Part shown: positions 29,855 through 34,928 of the stretch, one piece after another
Numbering within the stretch: position 1 is the stretch's first letter
Layout of the letters: each line of letters opens with the position of its first letter
Assembly (NCBI GenBank): GCA_035485115.1
Contig: DATHOG010000166.1
Span: 1,621 to 65,620, forward strand
Length of the DNA stretch: 64,000 nt
Source of the DNA: Candidatus Sulfotelmatobacter sp.
Lineage (GTDB): Bacteria > Verrucomicrobiota > Verrucomicrobiia > Limisphaerales > UBA11358
Reading direction: 5' to 3'
Notes under the pieces: generated by a model
Seen by the model: only the letters and a program-made list of their open reading frames with translations
Databases searched by the model: none
Told to the model about the DNA's origin: nothing
Position numbers and translations under genes: made by a program

Positions 29855-30778
29855 GTGACCGTCCTTGAAGCGATCCAGAAAAGTGCGGATTTTCTCGGCA
29901 AAAAAAATGTCGAGTCCGCGCGGCTGAACGCCGAACTGTTGCTGGCGCACGTGCTCAAGCTGCCGCGCATGAAGTTGTATCTGAATTTCGAGCGTGTCCT
30001 GACTCCGGCGGAAACCGACGGATTGCGGGAACTGGTCAAACGACGTGGCAATCGTGAACCGCTGCAGCACATCGTTGGCTCAACCTCGTTTTGCGGCTGC
30101 GAGATCGCGGTGAACCGTCACGCACTGGTGCCGCGGCCGGAAACGGAGTTACTGGTGGAACTGGGCTGGAAGTTTCTGCATGGCCGGGTGGGCGGTCCCC
30201 CGTCCGGCGAGCGGCGCGCAGGGGACTGCGCGCCCTACCAGGCCCTCGACTTTGGCACGGGAACGGGTTGCATTGCGATTGCGCTAGCGGTGAAATGTCC
30301 GGAGGCAAGGGTTTCAGCGCTGGATGTTTCGGCGGAGGCCATTGCCTTGGCAAAACAAAATGCCGAAGCAAATAAGGTTTCGGAGCGGATCGAATTTGTA
30401 CAGGGCGATGGGTTTGCGGTATTTGATTTAGGGACGGCGACACGCCGTCCCTCCCAATTTGATTTGATCATTAGCAACCCGCCCTATATCGCTTCGGCGG
30501 ACATTGAAACGCTCCAGCCGGAAGTCCGCGATTTTGACCCGCGCATGGCATTGGACGGCGGCACGGATGGCCTGGATTTCTATCGCCGGCTGGCGGGCGG
30601 AGGAAAAAGCTTTCTCAAGCCGGATGGCAAAATCATGGTGGAATTCGGCGACGGCCAGGCGGAGGCGATAAAAAGCATCTTCGAAAGCGAAAAGTGGATT
30701 GTCGAAGCCGTGCAAGAGGACTACTCTCACCGCGCCAGATTTCTGGTGGCGAAATCCTCCTCATTTTCATCGTCATAA
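29855..30778 (+). CDS. prmC: Release-factor glutamine N5-methyltransferase PrmC (HemK)
   Basis: REPLQHIVGSTSFCG, LVPRPETE, LDFGTGTGCIA and ISNPPYI (the NPPY motif). Confidence 0.9.
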   Translation: MTVLEAIQKSADFLGKKNVESARLNAELLLAHVLKLPRMKLYLNFERVLTPAETDGLRELVKRRGNREPLQHIVGSTSFCGCEIAVNRHALVPRPETELLVELGWKFLHGRVGGPPSGERRAGDCAPYQALDFGTGTGCIAIALAVKCPEARVSALDVSAEAIALAKQNAEANKVSERIEFVQGDGFAVFDLGTATRRPSQFDLIISNPPYIASADIETLQPEVRDFDPRMALDGGTDGLDFYRRLAGGGKSFLKPDGKIMVEFGDGQAEAIKSIFESEKWIVEAVQEDYSHRARFLVAKSSSFSSS

Positions 30779-30831: not shown

Positions 30832-32094
30832 ATGGACAGTTTTTTGATCAAAGGCGGCGTGCCGTTGCACGGCACGGTGGAAATCAGCGGCAGCAAAAAT
30901 GCCGCGCTCCCAATCCTGGCGGCGACGCTCCTCACGGACGAACCGTGCGTCATCCGGCGCGTGCCGGACTTGAGCGACACGCGGTTCATGGTGAAGATCC
31001 TCGAATCGCTTGGTGCCACGGCGAAGTTCGAGGACGGCACCCTCACCGTTCACGCCAAAAAAATCAAGGGCTATGCGGACTATGATCTTGTGCGCAAAAT
31101 GCGCGGTTCCATATGCATCGCCGGCCCGTTGCTGGGCCGTCTGAGGAAGGCACGCATCTCGCTGCCTGGCGGTTGCATCATCGGCGCGCGGCCGATCAAT
31201 CTGCATTTGAAAGGTTTTCAGGCCCTCGGGGCTAAAATCAAGATTGAGGGCGGTTATGTGGATGCCGTGGCCAAAAAACTGGTCGGCGCGTCCATGTTCC
31301 TCGGCGGGCGTGCGGGTCCGACGGTGCTCGGCACCGCCAATCTGATGATGGCGGCGGCGCTGGCGGAGGGTATCACTGTGATTGAAAGTGCAGCTTGTGA
31401 ACCGGAAGTGGTGGACGTGGCATGTTTCCTCAATGCGATGGGCGCGAAGATCCATGGTGCCGGCAGCCCGACGGTGACGATCGAGGGCGTGGAAAAACTT
31501 CACGGCGCGGAACACGAGGTCATTCCTGACCGCATCGAGACGGCGACATTTATCATCGCCGCCGCCGCGACGAACGGCGAGATCACCATCAAAGGCGGAC
31601 GCGCCGACCACCTGCGCGCCGTGCTGGACAAATTGAACGAGGCGAATGTTTCCGTCGAGCGGCGCGGTGCCGACATGATCGTGAAGCGCAAAGGCAAATT
31701 GAAACCGGCAGACGTGACAACGCTGCCATATTCGGGTTTTCCGACGGATGTGCAGGCGCAGATGATGGCATTGCTCACTCTGGCGCCGGGCATCAGCATC
31801 ATCACGGAGCGGATCTTTGAATCGCGCTTCATGCACGTCAGCGAGCTGGCGCGCCTCGGGGCAGAAATCGAGATCGAGGGGCCGAGCGCGATCATCAAAG
31901 GCGGCAAGCCGTTGAGCGGCGCGCCGGTGATGGCGAGCGACCTGCGCGCGAGCGCGGCTTTGGTCATCGCGGGCCTGGCGGCGAAGGGCGCGACGCAGGT
32001 GAACCGCATCTACCATCTGGACCGCGGTTACGAAAAGATGGACGAGAAACTTCACAAGCTGGGTGCACGGATCCAGCGGGTGGAGGAGAAATGA
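30832..32094 (+). CDS. murA: UDP-N-acetylglucosamine 1-carboxyvinyltransferase MurA
   Basis: Start trimmed to MDSFLIKGGVPLHGTVEISGSKNAALPILAATLL (ATG 30832). Shows the catalytic-loop region KMRGSICIAGPLL and ends ...KLGARIQRVEEK*. Confidence 0.92.
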   Translation: MDSFLIKGGVPLHGTVEISGSKNAALPILAATLLTDEPCVIRRVPDLSDTRFMVKILESLGATAKFEDGTLTVHAKKIKGYADYDLVRKMRGSICIAGPLLGRLRKARISLPGGCIIGARPINLHLKGFQALGAKIKIEGGYVDAVAKKLVGASMFLGGRAGPTVLGTANLMMAAALAEGITVIESAACEPEVVDVACFLNAMGAKIHGAGSPTVTIEGVEKLHGAEHEVIPDRIETATFIIAAAATNGEITIKGGRADHLRAVLDKLNEANVSVERRGADMIVKRKGKLKPADVTTLPYSGFPTDVQAQMMALLTLAPGISIITERIFESRFMHVSELARLGAEIEIEGPSAIIKGGKPLSGAPVMASDLRASAALVIAGLAAKGATQVNRIYHLDRGYEKMDEKLHKLGARIQRVEEK

Positions 32095-32131
32095 TTTCCG
32101 TGAAATTCCAAACCGTGATAAATTGGCATAC

Positions 32132-32332
32132 ATGAATGCGACCTTGCCTGAACCCGAAATCGTGACGCGCAAAGGCAAACCCGTGTCCGTCATCATCCCC
32201 ATCAAGGACTACGAGGAGCTTTTGGAGCGCGTGGAGGATTCTGCCGACGTGACGTGGCTCAAGCGTGCCCGCAACAAACCGCTTCACTACCGTCCGCTGG
32301 AGGAATATCTTACCGCGCGCAAGCGCAAGTGA
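32132..32332 (+). CDS. Phd/YefM-RelB-like antitoxin
   Basis: 66 aa: MNATLPEPEIVTRKGKPVSVIIPIKDYEELLERVEDSADVTWLKRARNKPLHYRPLEEYL. Its stop lies 2 nt before the toxin ATG. Confidence 0.75.
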   Translation: MNATLPEPEIVTRKGKPVSVIIPIKDYEELLERVEDSADVTWLKRARNKPLHYRPLEEYLTARKRK

Positions 32333-32334
32333 CC

Positions 32335-32588
32335 ATGTATCGCGTGCGGCTTGAACGCGCCGCTGAAAAAGATCTCTCGCGGCTTTCAGCGGAGATTCAC
32401 GACCGTATTATAACGGCAATCCAAGCGCTGGCGGTGAATCCCCGTCCATCCGGCTGCCGGAAACTTACTGGCAGCAAGAACGACTGGGTATCCGCGTTGG
32501 CGATTACCGCGTTATCTATGAGATAGGCGACAAGATTCGCATCGTGCGCGTCAACCGCGTGCGCCACCGCCGCGAAGTGTATCGCTGA
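32335..32588 (+). pseudogene. RelE/ParE-family toxin interrupted by a 1-nt frameshift
   Basis: Frame 1 reads MYRVRLERAAEKDLSRLSAEIHDRIITAIQALAVNPRPSGCRKLTGSKNDW, then nonsense to a stop at 32526. The conserved C-terminus IRVGDYRVIYEIGDKIRIVRVNRVRHRREVYR* is in the adjacent frame (32490-32588). One base appears to be missing at the TGGGT run near 32487-32489. Confidence 0.7.
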
Positions 32589-32635
32589 AACAGTGCAAGC
32601 CGGGCGCGCGGATCCAGCGGGTGGAGGAAACGTAA
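32587..32635 (+). repeat. Relic duplicate of the murA 3' end (imperfect direct repeat of 32046-32094)
   Basis: GAAACAGTGCAAGCCGGGCGCGCGGATCCAGCGGGTGGAGGAAACGTAA versus the murA end GAAACTTCACAAGCTGGGTGCACGGATCCAGCGGGTGGAGGAGAAATGA. A 20-nt identical core is present. In the murA frame the relic would read KPGARIQRVEET* versus KLGARIQRVEEK*. Confidence 0.8.
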
Positions 32636-32720
32636 GGCGCGGACAGCGCCGTCGCGGAAGTCGCTTTCCGAGACGGGCACCATCCGCGCCCGATTTAACT
32701 CCCCACAAATTTTCCAAGCG

Positions 32721-32772
32721 CTCGTCGCCGTGCTCATACCCGAATTAATTCGGGTATGAGCACGGCGACGAG
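32721..32772. repeat. Perfect 52-bp palindrome (26-bp arms, no spacer)
   Basis: CTCGTCGCCGTGCTCATACCCGAATT|AATTCGGGTATGAGCACGGCGACGAG. Lies in the spacer between the TA cassette and the minus-strand gene ending at 32801. It could act as a bidirectional terminator or a recombination/binding site. Confidence 0.9.
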
Positions 32773-32800
32773 AACGAGGATTTTCCAGTCAATCGTGTTT

Positions 32801-33145
32801 TCATGCGGCGAGGGTGGCGATATCGCTGCTGGCAACGTAGATGCGCGCCTGACGGCGGGCCTGGTGGAGCGCCGCCTCGGCCTTTTCCTCGAACAGGGCG
32901 GGGAAGACGAGCAGCGGGAACAACGTGTTCCACGCGATGGCGGCGGCTTCGTTGGCGGCGCGGCGCACGGGTGCGTTCAGCTCGGTGTCGGTGGCGACGA
33001 GCCGCCGGGCGAGCAGTTCCTTTTTCAGCCGTTCGAATTCGGTATCGAGGGCGGCGCGGAACGGCGCGGGGACCGGCAAGGGCCGCAGCGCGAAGCGCGT
33101 TTCGGGCCCGAATCGGGCCCGGAGTTTGTTTTCTTTCGGTTTCAT
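32801..33145 (-). CDS. Hypothetical protein
   Basis: 114 aa from MKPKENKLRARFGPE..., with helical-looking composition. The longer ORF to 33214 would run into the hairpin at 33194-33223. No family recognised. Confidence 0.45.
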   Translation of the reverse strand: MKPKENKLRARFGPETRFALRPLPVPAPFRAALDTEFERLKKELLARRLVATDTELNAPVRRAANEAAAIAWNTLFPLLVFPALFEEKAEAALHQARRQARIYVASSDIATLAA

Positions 33146-33193
33146 AATTGGTTCTTTCTCAGTTCTTTCTCTGGTTTGGTTCAAAAAGCGAAA

Positions 33194-33223
33194 AACCCGC
33201 GGTTGCCTTGGCAATCGCGGGTT
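33194..33223 (-). terminator. Intrinsic-terminator-like hairpin (minus-strand orientation) with no annotated upstream gene
   Basis: AACCCGCGGTTGCC TT GGCAATCGCGGGTT. On the minus strand it is followed by TTTTTCGCTTTTT; on the plus strand only by TTTTAG. Confidence 0.45.
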
Positions 33224-33544: not shown

Positions 33545-34543
33545 ATGAGCCAACCGTTAAAAATGGTGACGTGTCCGGGTTGCGACGCCAAGACGTTCAT
33601 CCCCGGCGACCTGCCGCCGCTGGCGACGGAGCCGTGCAAGAAGTGCGGGCATGCGATCATGATGCCGATGGTGCTGCGGCAATTCGAGTTGCGGAGCAAG
33701 ATTGCGAGCGGCGGCATGGGCTCGGTGTATCGCGCGTGGGACATGATGCTGGAACGGATGGTGGCGGTGAAGCTGATGAAGAAGGAGATGCTCGATGATC
33801 CCAAGATGGTGGAGGCGTTTGCGGTGGAGGCGCGCGCGTGCGCGAAATTGAACCACCAGAACATCATCCACCTCTACACTTTCGACGAATGGCAGGGAGA
33901 ACGTTATCTGGTGATGGAACTGGCGGACCAGGGCAGCCTGGACACGCGCATCGAAAAATTGCATCGCGTGGACGAATTGCGCGTGCTGGACGTGGGCATC
34001 CAGATTTCCCAGGCGCTGGATGCGGCGTTGAAGCACGACATGCTGCATTGCGATATCAAGCCGGGCAACATCCTGTTCAACAACGAGCACCAGCCGAAAC
34101 TGGTGGACTTCGGCCTGGCACGCAAAACGGACGCGGAGGCGGAATCGGCGGAGTTCACGCGCGGGACGCCGTATTACGTGGCGCCGGAGAAGATCAAGCG
34201 CGAGCCGGAGACCTTTTTATCGGACATGTATTCGCTGGGGGCGACGCTGTATCACGCCATCACGGGACACGTGCCCTTTGATGCGCCGACGCCGGATGAA
34301 GTGGTGCAGGCGCATGTGTACACGCCACTCACGCCGCCGAACCAGGTGGTGCCGGAAATCTCGCAAGCCACGAGCGATGCGTTGTCCCGGTCGCTGGCAA
34401 AAAATCCCGGAGAACGTTTTCTAAGTTACGATGACTTCATCATGGCGCTGGAATCGGCGCGCAGCCAGTTGCTGTTCTATCAGTCCCAACAGCCGGAACA
34501 GCAGCAGCCCAAGCGCATGACGAGCTGGTGGCGCAGAAAGTAA
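33545..34543 (+). CDS. Ser/Thr protein kinase with N-terminal zinc ribbon
   Basis: CPGCDAKTF...CKKCGH, then Hanks-kinase motifs: GGMGSVYRA, VAVKLM, HCDIKPGNILF, DFGLA, GTPYYVAPE. Confidence 0.9.
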   Translation: MSQPLKMVTCPGCDAKTFIPGDLPPLATEPCKKCGHAIMMPMVLRQFELRSKIASGGMGSVYRAWDMMLERMVAVKLMKKEMLDDPKMVEAFAVEARACAKLNHQNIIHLYTFDEWQGERYLVMELADQGSLDTRIEKLHRVDELRVLDVGIQISQALDAALKHDMLHCDIKPGNILFNNEHQPKLVDFGLARKTDAEAESAEFTRGTPYYVAPEKIKREPETFLSDMYSLGATLYHAITGHVPFDAPTPDEVVQAHVYTPLTPPNQVVPEISQATSDALSRSLAKNPGERFLSYDDFIMALESARSQLLFYQSQQPEQQQPKRMTSWWRRK

Positions 34544-34673
34544 AACGGTTCTCCGCTATTTTCGGTGGAATGGCTGGAAGGGATTTAAACAACCGGGATT
34601 ACCTTATTTAAAATTCATGGAAACCACTTCAGTTTGCAAAGGAACTTCCACTTGTGAATTGTTTTTAACGGCG

Positions 34674-34716
34674 AATAAAAAACATACCCGCATTGATGCC
34701 GTGCAATGCGGGTATG
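34674..34716 (-). terminator. Rho-independent terminator inside the MITE-like element
   Basis: Stem CATACCCGCATTG (34683-34695) pairs with CAATGCGGGTATG (34704-34716) around an 8-nt loop. On the minus strand it is followed by TTTTTTATT. Confidence 0.6.
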
Positions 34717-34722
34717 TGAATT

Positions 34723-34896
34723 TTATAGATCATCGACAGGTTTGTTGACTTTGAAATGCAACGGGTGGTATCTAGGGGTATCTAGGATAAGGGTGGTATC
34801 CAGAATAATATAGCCGGGGCTGAATACCATCCTCTCCGTGAAACCTGCCGGAACGCCCTTTTTCAGGCCGGACAGAATGGCTTTGTCAGACATCAT
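34723..34896 (-). CDS. Possible 57-aa ORF carried by the MITE-like element
   Basis: MMSDKAILSGLKKGVPAGFTERMVFSPGYIILDTTLILDTPRYHPLHFKVNKPVDDL. It starts inside IR-R and ends just before the internal terminator. It is below the track length cutoff and no family is recognised, so it may be fortuitous. Confidence 0.2.
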   Translation of the reverse strand: MMSDKAILSGLKKGVPAGFTERMVFSPGYIILDTTLILDTPRYHPLHFKVNKPVDDL

Positions 34897-34928
34897 TCCA
34901 CCGAAAACAGCGAGGAACGAGTAAAACA

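Follow-up and report, generated by a model that had tools for sequence, protein, structure and literature searches.

Introduction

Restriction-modification units that lack a mobility gene have been described as cases of 'insertion with long target duplication' (Nobusato et al. 2000, Gene 259:99; Furuta, Abe and Kobayashi 2010, PMC2853133). In this class, the insert is bounded by repeats of more than 30 bp (tens to about 100 bp), which often lie across a stop codon, whereas the empty site carries a single copy; the target gene is intact, and for this class, whose mechanism is not known, a life cycle operating through the repeats has been put forward (PMC2853133). The published repeat copies are nearly identical to one another and to the target (e.g. 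44/46 and 47/47; PMC2853133). The present analysis concerns a small cassette, composed of a toxin-antitoxin (TA) pair, at the 3' end of the essential cell-wall gene murA in a 64,000-nt stretch of a metagenome-assembled genome (MAG) of a soil member of the Limisphaerales (Verrucomicrobia subdivision 3; assembly GCA_035485115.1, contig DATHOG010000166.1), this whole stretch being referred to here as the window. Insertion with long target duplication is the nearest description of this locus.

Doubled gene ends are also found in ICESt1/ICESt3 and in cis-mobilizable elements (CIMEs) at the fda end of Streptococcus thermophilus, where the two copies of the gene 3' end represent attL and attR and the element supplies the working end. 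These systems are characterized by a tyrosine integrase and a fixed identical core; tandem accretion is known, and CIMEs are devoid of an integrase. The pdif modules of Acinetobacter plasmids represent small recombinase-less units, often carrying TA genes, which are bounded by inverted 28-bp XerC/D sites and moved by the XerC/XerD proteins of the host. Chromosomal TA pairs are very common and evidently move between genomes, although the majority are located outside recognizable mobile elements. The layout reported here was found in the open-access literature for restriction-modification units and not for TA pairs, an absence that constitutes weak evidence.

The murA 3' end is present in two copies around a TA pair

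A repeat search aligned positions 32046-32087 with 32587-32628 at 83% identity over 42 nt, with a start-to-start spacing of 541 nt and an exact 20-nt block, CGGATCCAGCGGGTGGAGGA, at 32068-32087 and 32609-32628. Counted to the stop codon, the repeat spans 49 nt, and the frame of the downstream copy, termed the relic, is open to its TAA at 32633-32635. The relic translates as K Q C K P G A R I Q R V E E T-stop, compared with K L H K L G A R I Q R V E E K-stop for the live murA end. This recurrence of the gene end, with its 20-nt core, had been noticed in an earlier, sequence-only reading of the window, and it withstood formal alignment statistics: the last 60 nt of murA aligned to the following 4 kb with a score of 28, the highest score among 56 further 4-kb blocks, taken from either strand of the window, being 13, and an nhmmer profile of 81 murA tails recovered the relic with E=3.8e-5 over all DNA then under analysis.

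The same reading had called the differences between the two copies partly synonymous; four synonymous and four non-synonymous differences were counted, with three of the latter clustered in the left 15 nt. Open reading frame (ORF) and Pfam analysis agreed with its further statements that only an antitoxin and a toxin gene lie between the copies and that the toxin stop (TGA, 32586-32588) shares bases with the beginning of the relic. The toxin gene starts 2 nt past the antitoxin stop. According to Pfam, this 0.5-kb insert, well under the 20 kb that bounds the restriction-modification class, contains no gene for an integrase, a transposase or another mobility function. Run X1, possibly the source sample of the window, yielded a Logan contig identical to the window over 31998-32735, which excludes a mis-join by the assembler of the window as the origin of the layout. 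The features of the locus are listed in Table 1.

Table 1. Features of the murA locus, with positions on the window and the evidence for each
Feature	Positions	Strand	Evidence or remark
prmC	29855-30778	+	gene upstream of murA
murA (UDP-N-acetylglucosamine 1-carboxyvinyltransferase), 420 aa, intact	30832-32094	+	Pfam EPSP_synthase, E=6e-105
Live murA end, upstream repeat copy	32046-32094	+	repeat search, local alignment, codon comparison, empty-site contig
Cassette leader, putative TA promoter and thiC-end-like remnant	32095-32131	+	~70 aligned left junctions; promoter predicted
Antitoxin, 66 aa, Phd/YefM-RelB type, intact	32132-32332	+	Pfam PF02604, 29.3 bits; PF18506, 27.1 bits
RelE/ParE-family toxin, pseudogene	32335-32588	+	PF05016 in two frames; alignment with L001 homologue
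Relic of the original murA end, downstream repeat copy, stop TAA 32633-32635	32587-32635	+	repeat search, murA-tail profile, codon comparison
Native hairpin (GGCGCGGACAG ... CCATCCGCGCC)	32636-32690	.	inverted repeat; behind the murA stop at empty sites of relatives
Perfect 26+26 nt palindrome between convergent genes	32721-32772	.	inverted repeat; native flank, not cassette
Conserved convergent gene, 137 aa, without Pfam match	32801-33214	-	native downstream neighbour of murA

Empty sites lack exactly one repeat spacing

The locus was compared with 80 MAG contigs of Limisphaerales/Verrucomicrobia whose murA is 76-92% identical to that of the window. The convergent 137-aa gene was found downstream of murA, within 4 kb, in 41 of these 80 relatives. 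In 26 of the 41, the distance from murA to this gene is at most 422 nt and no second murA tail is present, while the other 15 carry 0.5-3 kb of additional genes between the two.

Contigs with an empty site were obtained for a relative that is ~92% identical to the window. These contigs are derived from two independent data sets of moss metagenomes, X4/X5 and X6/X7, each of which seems to have been filed twice, and join 32060 directly to 32602, skipping exactly 541 nt; the sequence missing from the empty-site allele equals the repeat spacing. Their murA tail reads GAG AAA CTT CAC AAA CTG GGC GCG CGG ATC CAG CGG GTT CAG GAA ACG TAA GGCGCGGACAG (from loose contig ends, GAGAAACTTCACAAACT, GGGCGCGCGGATCCAGCGGGTTCAGGAAACGTAA and GGCGCGGACAG in succession), the letters having been read by aligning the same runs to each repeat copy alone. 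The contigs go on through the native hairpin into the palindrome at 32721, and the expectation of the sequence-only reading that an empty site would run from the murA end to this palindrome was thereby borne out. Relatives with an empty site, i.e. the 26 mentioned above and the X4/X5 and X6/X7 contigs, carry a single murA end and not both copies, as an insertion in that reading implied.

In empty-site relatives, a hairpin of the type GAGCGCGGACAG...CTGTCCGCGCTCC is located 0-10 nt past the murA stop (L008, L009, L035, L042 and L056) and is followed by a TTCCCCAC box and a second hairpin. In the window, the same hairpin-box-hairpin series begins directly behind the TAA of the relic. Furthermore, colinearity (score 92, offsets 1-364 versus 10-368) was observed between 364 nt downstream of the relic and 368 nt downstream of the murA stop of L056, which carries a similar hairpin where the window has the palindrome. 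This colinearity of the two flanks indicates that the relic occupies the place of the original murA end.

The two copies form a complementary mosaic

Comparison with the empty-site contigs revealed that each copy is altered only on its cassette-facing side. The rare codon pair CTT CAC (Leu-His) of the empty site recurs in the left part of the live copy, while the right part differs from the empty site (GGT GCA, GAG AAA TGA). The left part of the relic differs from the empty site at 5 of 17 nt (CAG TGC ... CCG; L>Q, H>C and L>P); from 32602 onwards (GGC GCG ... GAA ACG TAA) and into the flank, the relic exhibits native states that are absent from the live copy. The only mismatches between this right part and the empty-site contig are two adjacent ones at 32623-32624 (GG versus TC), which separate the ~92% identical relative from both window copies.

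Live murA is thus native-like to about 32060, its last 7-34 nt (GGT GCA ... GAG AAA TGA) being putatively cassette-borne. The confinement of changes to the cassette-facing sides fits a reciprocal exchange with a diverged incoming end, and not in-place duplication followed by mutation. The crossover in the window would be located at about 32061-32063, or at most up to the 20-nt block; this position is approximate because the reference is a relative and not the ancestor. As to which copy is foreign, a question raised by the sequence-only reading, position provides an answer: the relic bears the native-type ending EET-stop and adjoins native downstream sequence, while the live end adjoins the cassette. 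The proposal that a cassette integrated into, or recombined at, the murA 3' end and brought a replacement end is supported by the empty site, the position of the relic and the mosaic.

The arrangement recurs at murA in relatives

The independent MAG L001 carries the same TA pair, with an intact toxin, and a relic behind murA. Its relic ends in ...KLKKLGARIQRIKEVEPK-stop (RIKEVEPK-stop) and its live end in ...RVEEK-stop; the three-codon extension of the relic corresponds to the native ending of the live gene of a close relative, L003 (RVKEVEGK-stop). In L021, murA is followed by a tandem array that begins with HicA/HicB and a first relic, continues with a cassette of two genes that lack a Pfam match, and closes with another relic and a 196-aa ORF, and the differences shared among the three copies of the gene end place both exchanges between window-equivalent positions 32069 and 32075. 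L029 carries a relic behind an acyltransferase gene, and a marginal relic (E=0.019) was detected in L048. The synonymous and non-synonymous differences between live end and relic amounted to 4/1 and 4/0 for the first and second relics of L021, respectively, and to 3/0 for L029.

In a murA tree that was built without the tail, the window is sister to (L001,(L002,L003)). L003 has a native murA end. L002 (2400-3200) has its left junction in common with L001 (murA end ...GGAGGAGAAATAA then TTTAC) and carries other cargo, with no relic detected; the cargo of L002 seems to have been swapped behind the shared junction. The placement in the tree, the other cargo of L002 and the native end of L003 together point to at least two gain or loss events. 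Across the whole murA tree, insert-bearing and insert-free loci are interleaved.

Several further observations were made at these loci. Within the L021 array (L021:5263-7400), a murA-end copy precedes each unit, the copies differ from one another almost solely at synonymous sites, and the 196-aa ORF is secreted-looking. The L002 cargo consists of three small ORFs (67, 124 and 61 aa) without Pfam match in place of the TA pair. The cargo of the murA-end inserts and flanks was shown to comprise HicAB, ParDE, Phd-like, acyltransferase, Mrr-type nuclease, serpin and GmrSD genes, as well as many unmatched ORFs; no integrase or transposase domain was detected by Pfam in the window cassette or in ~50 insert and flank ORFs of relatives. 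Defence genes gather at the murA-end site: a gene for a GmrSD-type (type IV) restriction nuclease is located just past the relic of L001 (L001:2075-3934), and the Mrr-type nuclease is the cargo of L007. Finally, eight contigs with Limisphaerales-type murA, prmC and flanks (L018, L021, L027, L045, L048, L049, L059 and L062) are labelled as Bifidobacteriaceae, Methylomirabilota, Acidobacteriota genera or Akkermansia muciniphila, and look like mis-binned or mislabelled MAG records.

Related cassettes are accompanied by relics of other gene ends

Relatives of the window antitoxin in other contexts were retrieved by exact protein look-up and a metagenome scan, and the 250 nt before each antitoxin was sought again after the toxin, with shuffled controls. 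Relics of 134-141 nt were found behind thiC (L093/L109, L112 and L128; score 56-95, null maximum about 15), of 82 nt including the stop behind a cytochrome-c-like gene (L154; score 64), of 44 nt behind a hisS-like gene (L162, L169 and L172; score 20-22, null maximum 13-15) and of 104 nt in L150, where the upstream gene was not identified (score 74). The antitoxins at the thiC, cytochrome-c-like and hisS-like ends are 78-88% identical to that of the window, and these three ends and that of murA share no sequence. A search for the same TA pair next to murA or other gene ends, as suggested in the sequence-only reading, was thus productive, since the pair itself recurs behind murA in L001 and its cassette relatives occur, with relics, behind thiC, cytochrome-c-like and hisS-like genes. 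In the same recurrence test, no relic was displayed by about 60 other loci or by the close relatives of the cassette that are located behind glgB, glnD and a gene for a trypsin-like protease; the gene-end footprint is recurrent and not universal. The antitoxin family as a whole comprises 1610 homologues at E<=1e-8, in at least 120 clusters of 80-91% identity.

Between the live and relic copies at thiC, 14 synonymous and 6 non-synonymous differences were observed in L093, the proportion of synonymous differences (pS) at thiC reaches 0.6-0.84, and two of the three relics retain an open frame with a conserved C-terminus (that of L128 contains one in-frame stop). When the live-relic differences of seven pairs were pooled (Nei-Gojobori), 74.5 were synonymous and 37.5 non-synonymous, with synonymous sites representing 21%. 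This synonymous excess is significant against neutrality (p=2e-24) and also against an in-place duplication with a neutral relic and a selected gene (67% versus about 35% expected, p=2e-11). The excess indicates that the copies diverged as working gene ends in different lineages, and the two copies at each locus would have been brought together recently relative to their divergence.

A thiC-end-like remnant precedes the TA genes

Alignment of ~70 left junctions revealed that most read ...GA(G)(A/C)TTTACGC(G/C)AAGGCGTGAAC directly before a conserved CGTGATAAACT box. This junction sequence represents the thiC C-terminus (G-S/N-E-L/I-Y-A-K-A-stop) or a decayed remnant of it, also where the upstream gene is not thiC; the C-terminal coding remnant, TTTACGCGAAGGCGTGAA, was located in the window (32095-32131), in L091 (960-1004) and L093 (1960-2000), and at about 70 loci. 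A recognizable thiC end was present at 13 of 76 metagenome loci, 7 of which carry a full thiC gene. Between the murA stop and the box, the remnant reads TTTCCGTGAAATTCCAAA in the window and TTTACGCGAACAAAGGAA in L001, and the first 18 nt of the window leader resemble a decayed thiC 3' end.

In the junctions of the family, TTTACG is located 18 nt upstream of TAAACT, which is preceded by TG. TTTACG and TG-n-TAAACT (TTTACG/TGATAAACT) are probably the -35 and extended -10 elements of a putative TA promoter, which in the window are likely represented by TTTCCG (32095-32100) and TGATAAATT (32122-32130). The proposed TA promoter is derived from conservation only, as a consensus scan returned no sigma-70 promoter in 31950-32850. 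The distribution of the remnant suggests that the thiC end is the usual home of the cassette family and that murA was reached secondarily. The murA end, GGAGAAATGA, resembles the thiC end, GGGAAATGAGA, and one may speculate that this similarity provided microhomology for such a jump. As a separate observation, a 2970-nt metagenome contig contains three thiC-like pieces (45, 33 and 106 aa) downstream of one TA cassette (L124:693-2970), which may represent a serial array of thiC ends.

The toxin gene of the window is frameshifted

The window pair is predicted to represent a type II TA system with a Phd/RelB-type antitoxin and a RelE/ParE toxin. The antitoxin matched PF18506 at 27.1 bits (cut-off 27), and its match to PF02604 (PhdYeFM_antitox, 29.3 bits) fell just below the cut-off of 29.8; antitoxin homologues exhibit the same precomputed domain matches. 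For the toxin, PF05016 (ParE_toxin) was matched with 25.9 bits on a C-terminal piece (cut-off 23) and 16 bits on an N-terminal piece, profile positions 1-45 being found in one frame and 59-89 in another. The same domain is present in intact homologues of the window toxin.

Alignment with the intact 84-aa homologue of L001 revealed a 1-nt deletion near 32487 (window GACTGG-GTATCC versus L001 GACTGGCGCATCC), which causes a frameshift and had not been mentioned in the sequence-only reading of this feature. The N-terminal part terminates at a TAG (32524-32526), and the C-terminal part continues in the other frame to the TGA that overlaps the relic. The deletion is also present in the X1 contig. 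Because its toxin is frameshifted, the module appears to be eroding in this genome. A contig from another run, X2, is identical to the window over 32100-32482 and ends 5 nt short of the frameshift, with no X2 coverage beyond; this break may be due to low depth or to polymorphism at the frameshift. The G+C content of the cassette (0.55-0.58) is slightly lower than that of murA (0.60-0.65), a drop that is not diagnostic.

A post-stop motif accompanies other inserts at the murA end

In eleven relatives (e.g. L043, L031, L033, L007, L017, L028, L011, L014, L030 and L036), a motif of ~40 nt (ATTTTACAGACTGCAATTTACTTGGGACTGACCC; ATTTTACAGACTGCAATTTACTTGGGACTGACCCGTTTA) is located directly after the murA stop. 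The motif was also found behind the relic of L029 and, in decayed form, behind both relics of L021; empty sites lack it. In L007, L017, L031, L033 and L043 (e.g. L043:5264-5855), the insert ends with an inverted copy of TACTTGGGACTGACCC. The ~40-nt motif may mark a distinct, possibly enzyme-driven, type of non-autonomous cassette that targets the murA end.

Short AAACGGGTC repeats were noted beside the inverted TACTTGGGACTGACCC copy, and in L028 (5275-5330) a 28-nt segment of the post-stop motif (TGTAATTTACTTGGGACTGACCCCTTTA) occurs as two exact copies in tandem. A 16-nt inverted-repeat motif of the relatives' cassettes was also sought in viral contigs, where three matches were obtained, no more than expected by chance; this motif is not present in the window and is unrelated to the ISL3-type miniature inverted-repeat transposable element (MITE) at 34538-34927.

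Discussion

The reading that we favour, and consider somewhat probable, is that the cassette entered murA by homologous exchange between the native gene end and a murA-end copy travelling with the cassette. The 0.5-kb TA cassette would enter the last roughly 35-50 nt of murA by reciprocal exchange, after which murA would consist of native sequence to about 32060 followed by the imported end (... GAG AAA TGA), while the original end (... GAA ACG TAA), still attached to the native hairpin, would be shifted 541 nt downstream as a non-coding relic. Since the imported end restores the gene, murA would be intact throughout, with insertion and gene repair occurring in a single step. The process would be one of ordinary homologous recombination, with the pair of gene-end copies as its portable homology arms. 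The incoming DNA may have been a circle of tail and cassette, formed by recombination between the two repeats of the donor and inserted in a Campbell-style manner; as an equal option, a linear tail-cassette-relic piece may have been taken up and crossed in on both sides. As the imported part of murA is at most 34 nt, this DNA probably contained a short tail and not a long donor murA. The first arrival of the cassette at murA would have been a rare illegitimate, microhomology-type event, followed by spread among murA alleles by homology, with the thiC-end remnant supplying the -35 of the cassette promoter.

A number of observations weigh against this reading. The empty-site reference is only ~92% identical to the window, which leaves the exact crossover point uncertain; moreover, most relatives have GGC GCG, and GCA occurs natively in L056 as well. 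A phylogeny of the two copies against murA orthologues, which the sequence-only reading had envisaged for identifying the foreign copy, had no resolving power, as the tail is too short and too conserved: when 33-51-nt tails were compared with 80 murA ends in a nearest-neighbour test, many of these ends were about equally close to relic and live tail. Between the window and L001, TA genes and murA are equally diverged (both about 80-85% identical) and no identity step is present at the cassette border; a recent transfer between these two lineages was rejected on this basis, and the event appears to be old, with some relic differences possibly representing later decay. In addition, a relic was found at only about 9 of 70 testable metagenome loci, most cassette relatives showing none, and no circular form or same-strain excision product was encountered among the assembled contigs searched. 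Finally, the ~40-nt motif could be the binding site of a recombinase encoded elsewhere.

The last point is the main reason for taking seriously, even though we regard it as unlikely, the explanation that a site-specific recombinase encoded elsewhere in the genome acts on the murA end and the sequence after its stop as an attachment site, the cassettes being non-autonomous passengers comparable to the CIMEs left by integrative elements or to integron cassettes. In layout, the locus corresponds to attL/attR sites at a protein gene's 3' end, including the replacement end, and the murA end is a hotspot, with unrelated cargo of 0.5-3 kb (HicAB, ParDE, Mrr-type nuclease, serpin and acyltransferase) present in 15 of 41 relatives. 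The tandem arrays with a tail copy ahead of each cassette (L021 and L029), the ~40-nt motif and its inverted copy at the far end of five cassettes are likewise in its favour. However, no recombinase gene was present in any insert or flank examined, and the window and L001 cassettes are themselves devoid of the motif. The same TA family occurs at murA, thiC, cytochrome-c-like and hisS-like ends without a common sequence, and the repeat copies differ at many positions, with no defined core of identity between flanking arms. The use of unrelated gene ends, relic lengths ranging from 44 to 141 nt, differing crossover intervals (32069-32075 in L021 and 32061-32063 in the window) and the short import all argue against a fixed att core and in favour of an exchange driven by homology. 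The resemblance to attL/attR pointed out in the sequence-only reading therefore holds for the layout and not for the 20-nt identical block, which is probably not an att core, as the mosaic puts the exchange at or to the left of this block and the crossover intervals vary among loci.

True insertion with long target duplication, whereby a tail-less cassette enters at a staggered break, ~50 nt are duplicated in place and the copies then diverge, appears less probable still. A direct repeat of more than 30 bp across the stop codon, a small insert without a mobility gene and a single-copy empty site are what this class displays (PMC2853133), and an event of this kind would still be needed for the first arrival at murA. 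Yet the differences between the copies are complementary, the live copy being changed only to the right of about 32063 and the relic only to the left of 32602, and the pooled differences are 67% synonymous instead of the about 35% expected (p=2e-11). The high pS at thiC (0.6-0.84), combined with an open conserved frame in two of three relics (L128 having one in-frame stop), and the lineage-specific three-codon extension of the L003 live gene in the L001 relic also contradict a copy made in place. That the similarity is due to chance, or that the locus is an assembly chimera of cassette-bearing and cassette-free strains, was conceivable given the short repeat (42-49 nt, 83%) and the metagenomic origin of the genome; this explanation is refuted by the results and retains hardly any probability, considering the alignment score of 28 versus at most 13, the profile match (E=3.8e-5), the X1 contig identical over 31998-32735, the same architecture in the unrelated MAG L001, and an empty-site allele that lacks exactly the repeat spacing.

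If homologous exchange with a travelling gene end is extended beyond the window, the Phd-RelE family might constitute a recombinase-free mobile element, a proposition that we consider tentative and, as a whole, rather doubtful. Such an element would carry a copy of the host gene's 3' end, exit as a circle via its two copies and re-enter naive alleles by a gene-repairing crossover. It would occasionally jump to a new gene by microhomology and carry along a remnant of the end of its previous host gene, the thiC-derived -35 being one such remnant, and the Limisphaerales murA end would then count among several 'landing strips' at which arrays accumulate. For the question of how chromosomal TA pairs move, the murA locus represents a clean case, as it offers an empty site together with a mosaic junction and tandem arrays, and suggests a cassette that travels with a copy of its target end and uses host recombination, so that the essential gene is never broken. 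If this were general, gene-end relics would provide a simple sequence mark for such insertions and would also help to account for the accumulation of accessory and defence genes downstream of conserved housekeeping genes.

With respect to known systems, the locus resembles ICESt1 and the CIMEs in its doubled gene 3' end, the working end supplied by the element, tandem accretion (in L021) and, as in CIMEs, the absence of an integrase. It differs from ICESt1-type elements in its payload of 0.5 kb, in that no integrase was found, and in its several unrelated gene ends and varying crossover points. Like the window cassette, pdif modules are small and recombinase-less, although the boundaries in the window are direct copies of a coding gene end; no dif-like site was seen, no search aimed at one having been made. 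With regard to integron cassettes, the repeats at murA are likewise direct copies of a coding end and not attC-type palindromes, and no integrase was seen near the arrays. The closest parallel is provided by the restriction-modification units, with which the locus shares a small addictive unit without a mobility gene, direct repeats across a stop codon, a single-copy empty site and an intact target gene. In contrast to these units, the window cargo is a type II TA pair, and its repeat copies are 83% identical and form a complementary mosaic, with pooled differences that are mostly synonymous. The mosaic and the synonymous differences indicate that one copy of the gene end originated from another lineage and was not made at insertion.

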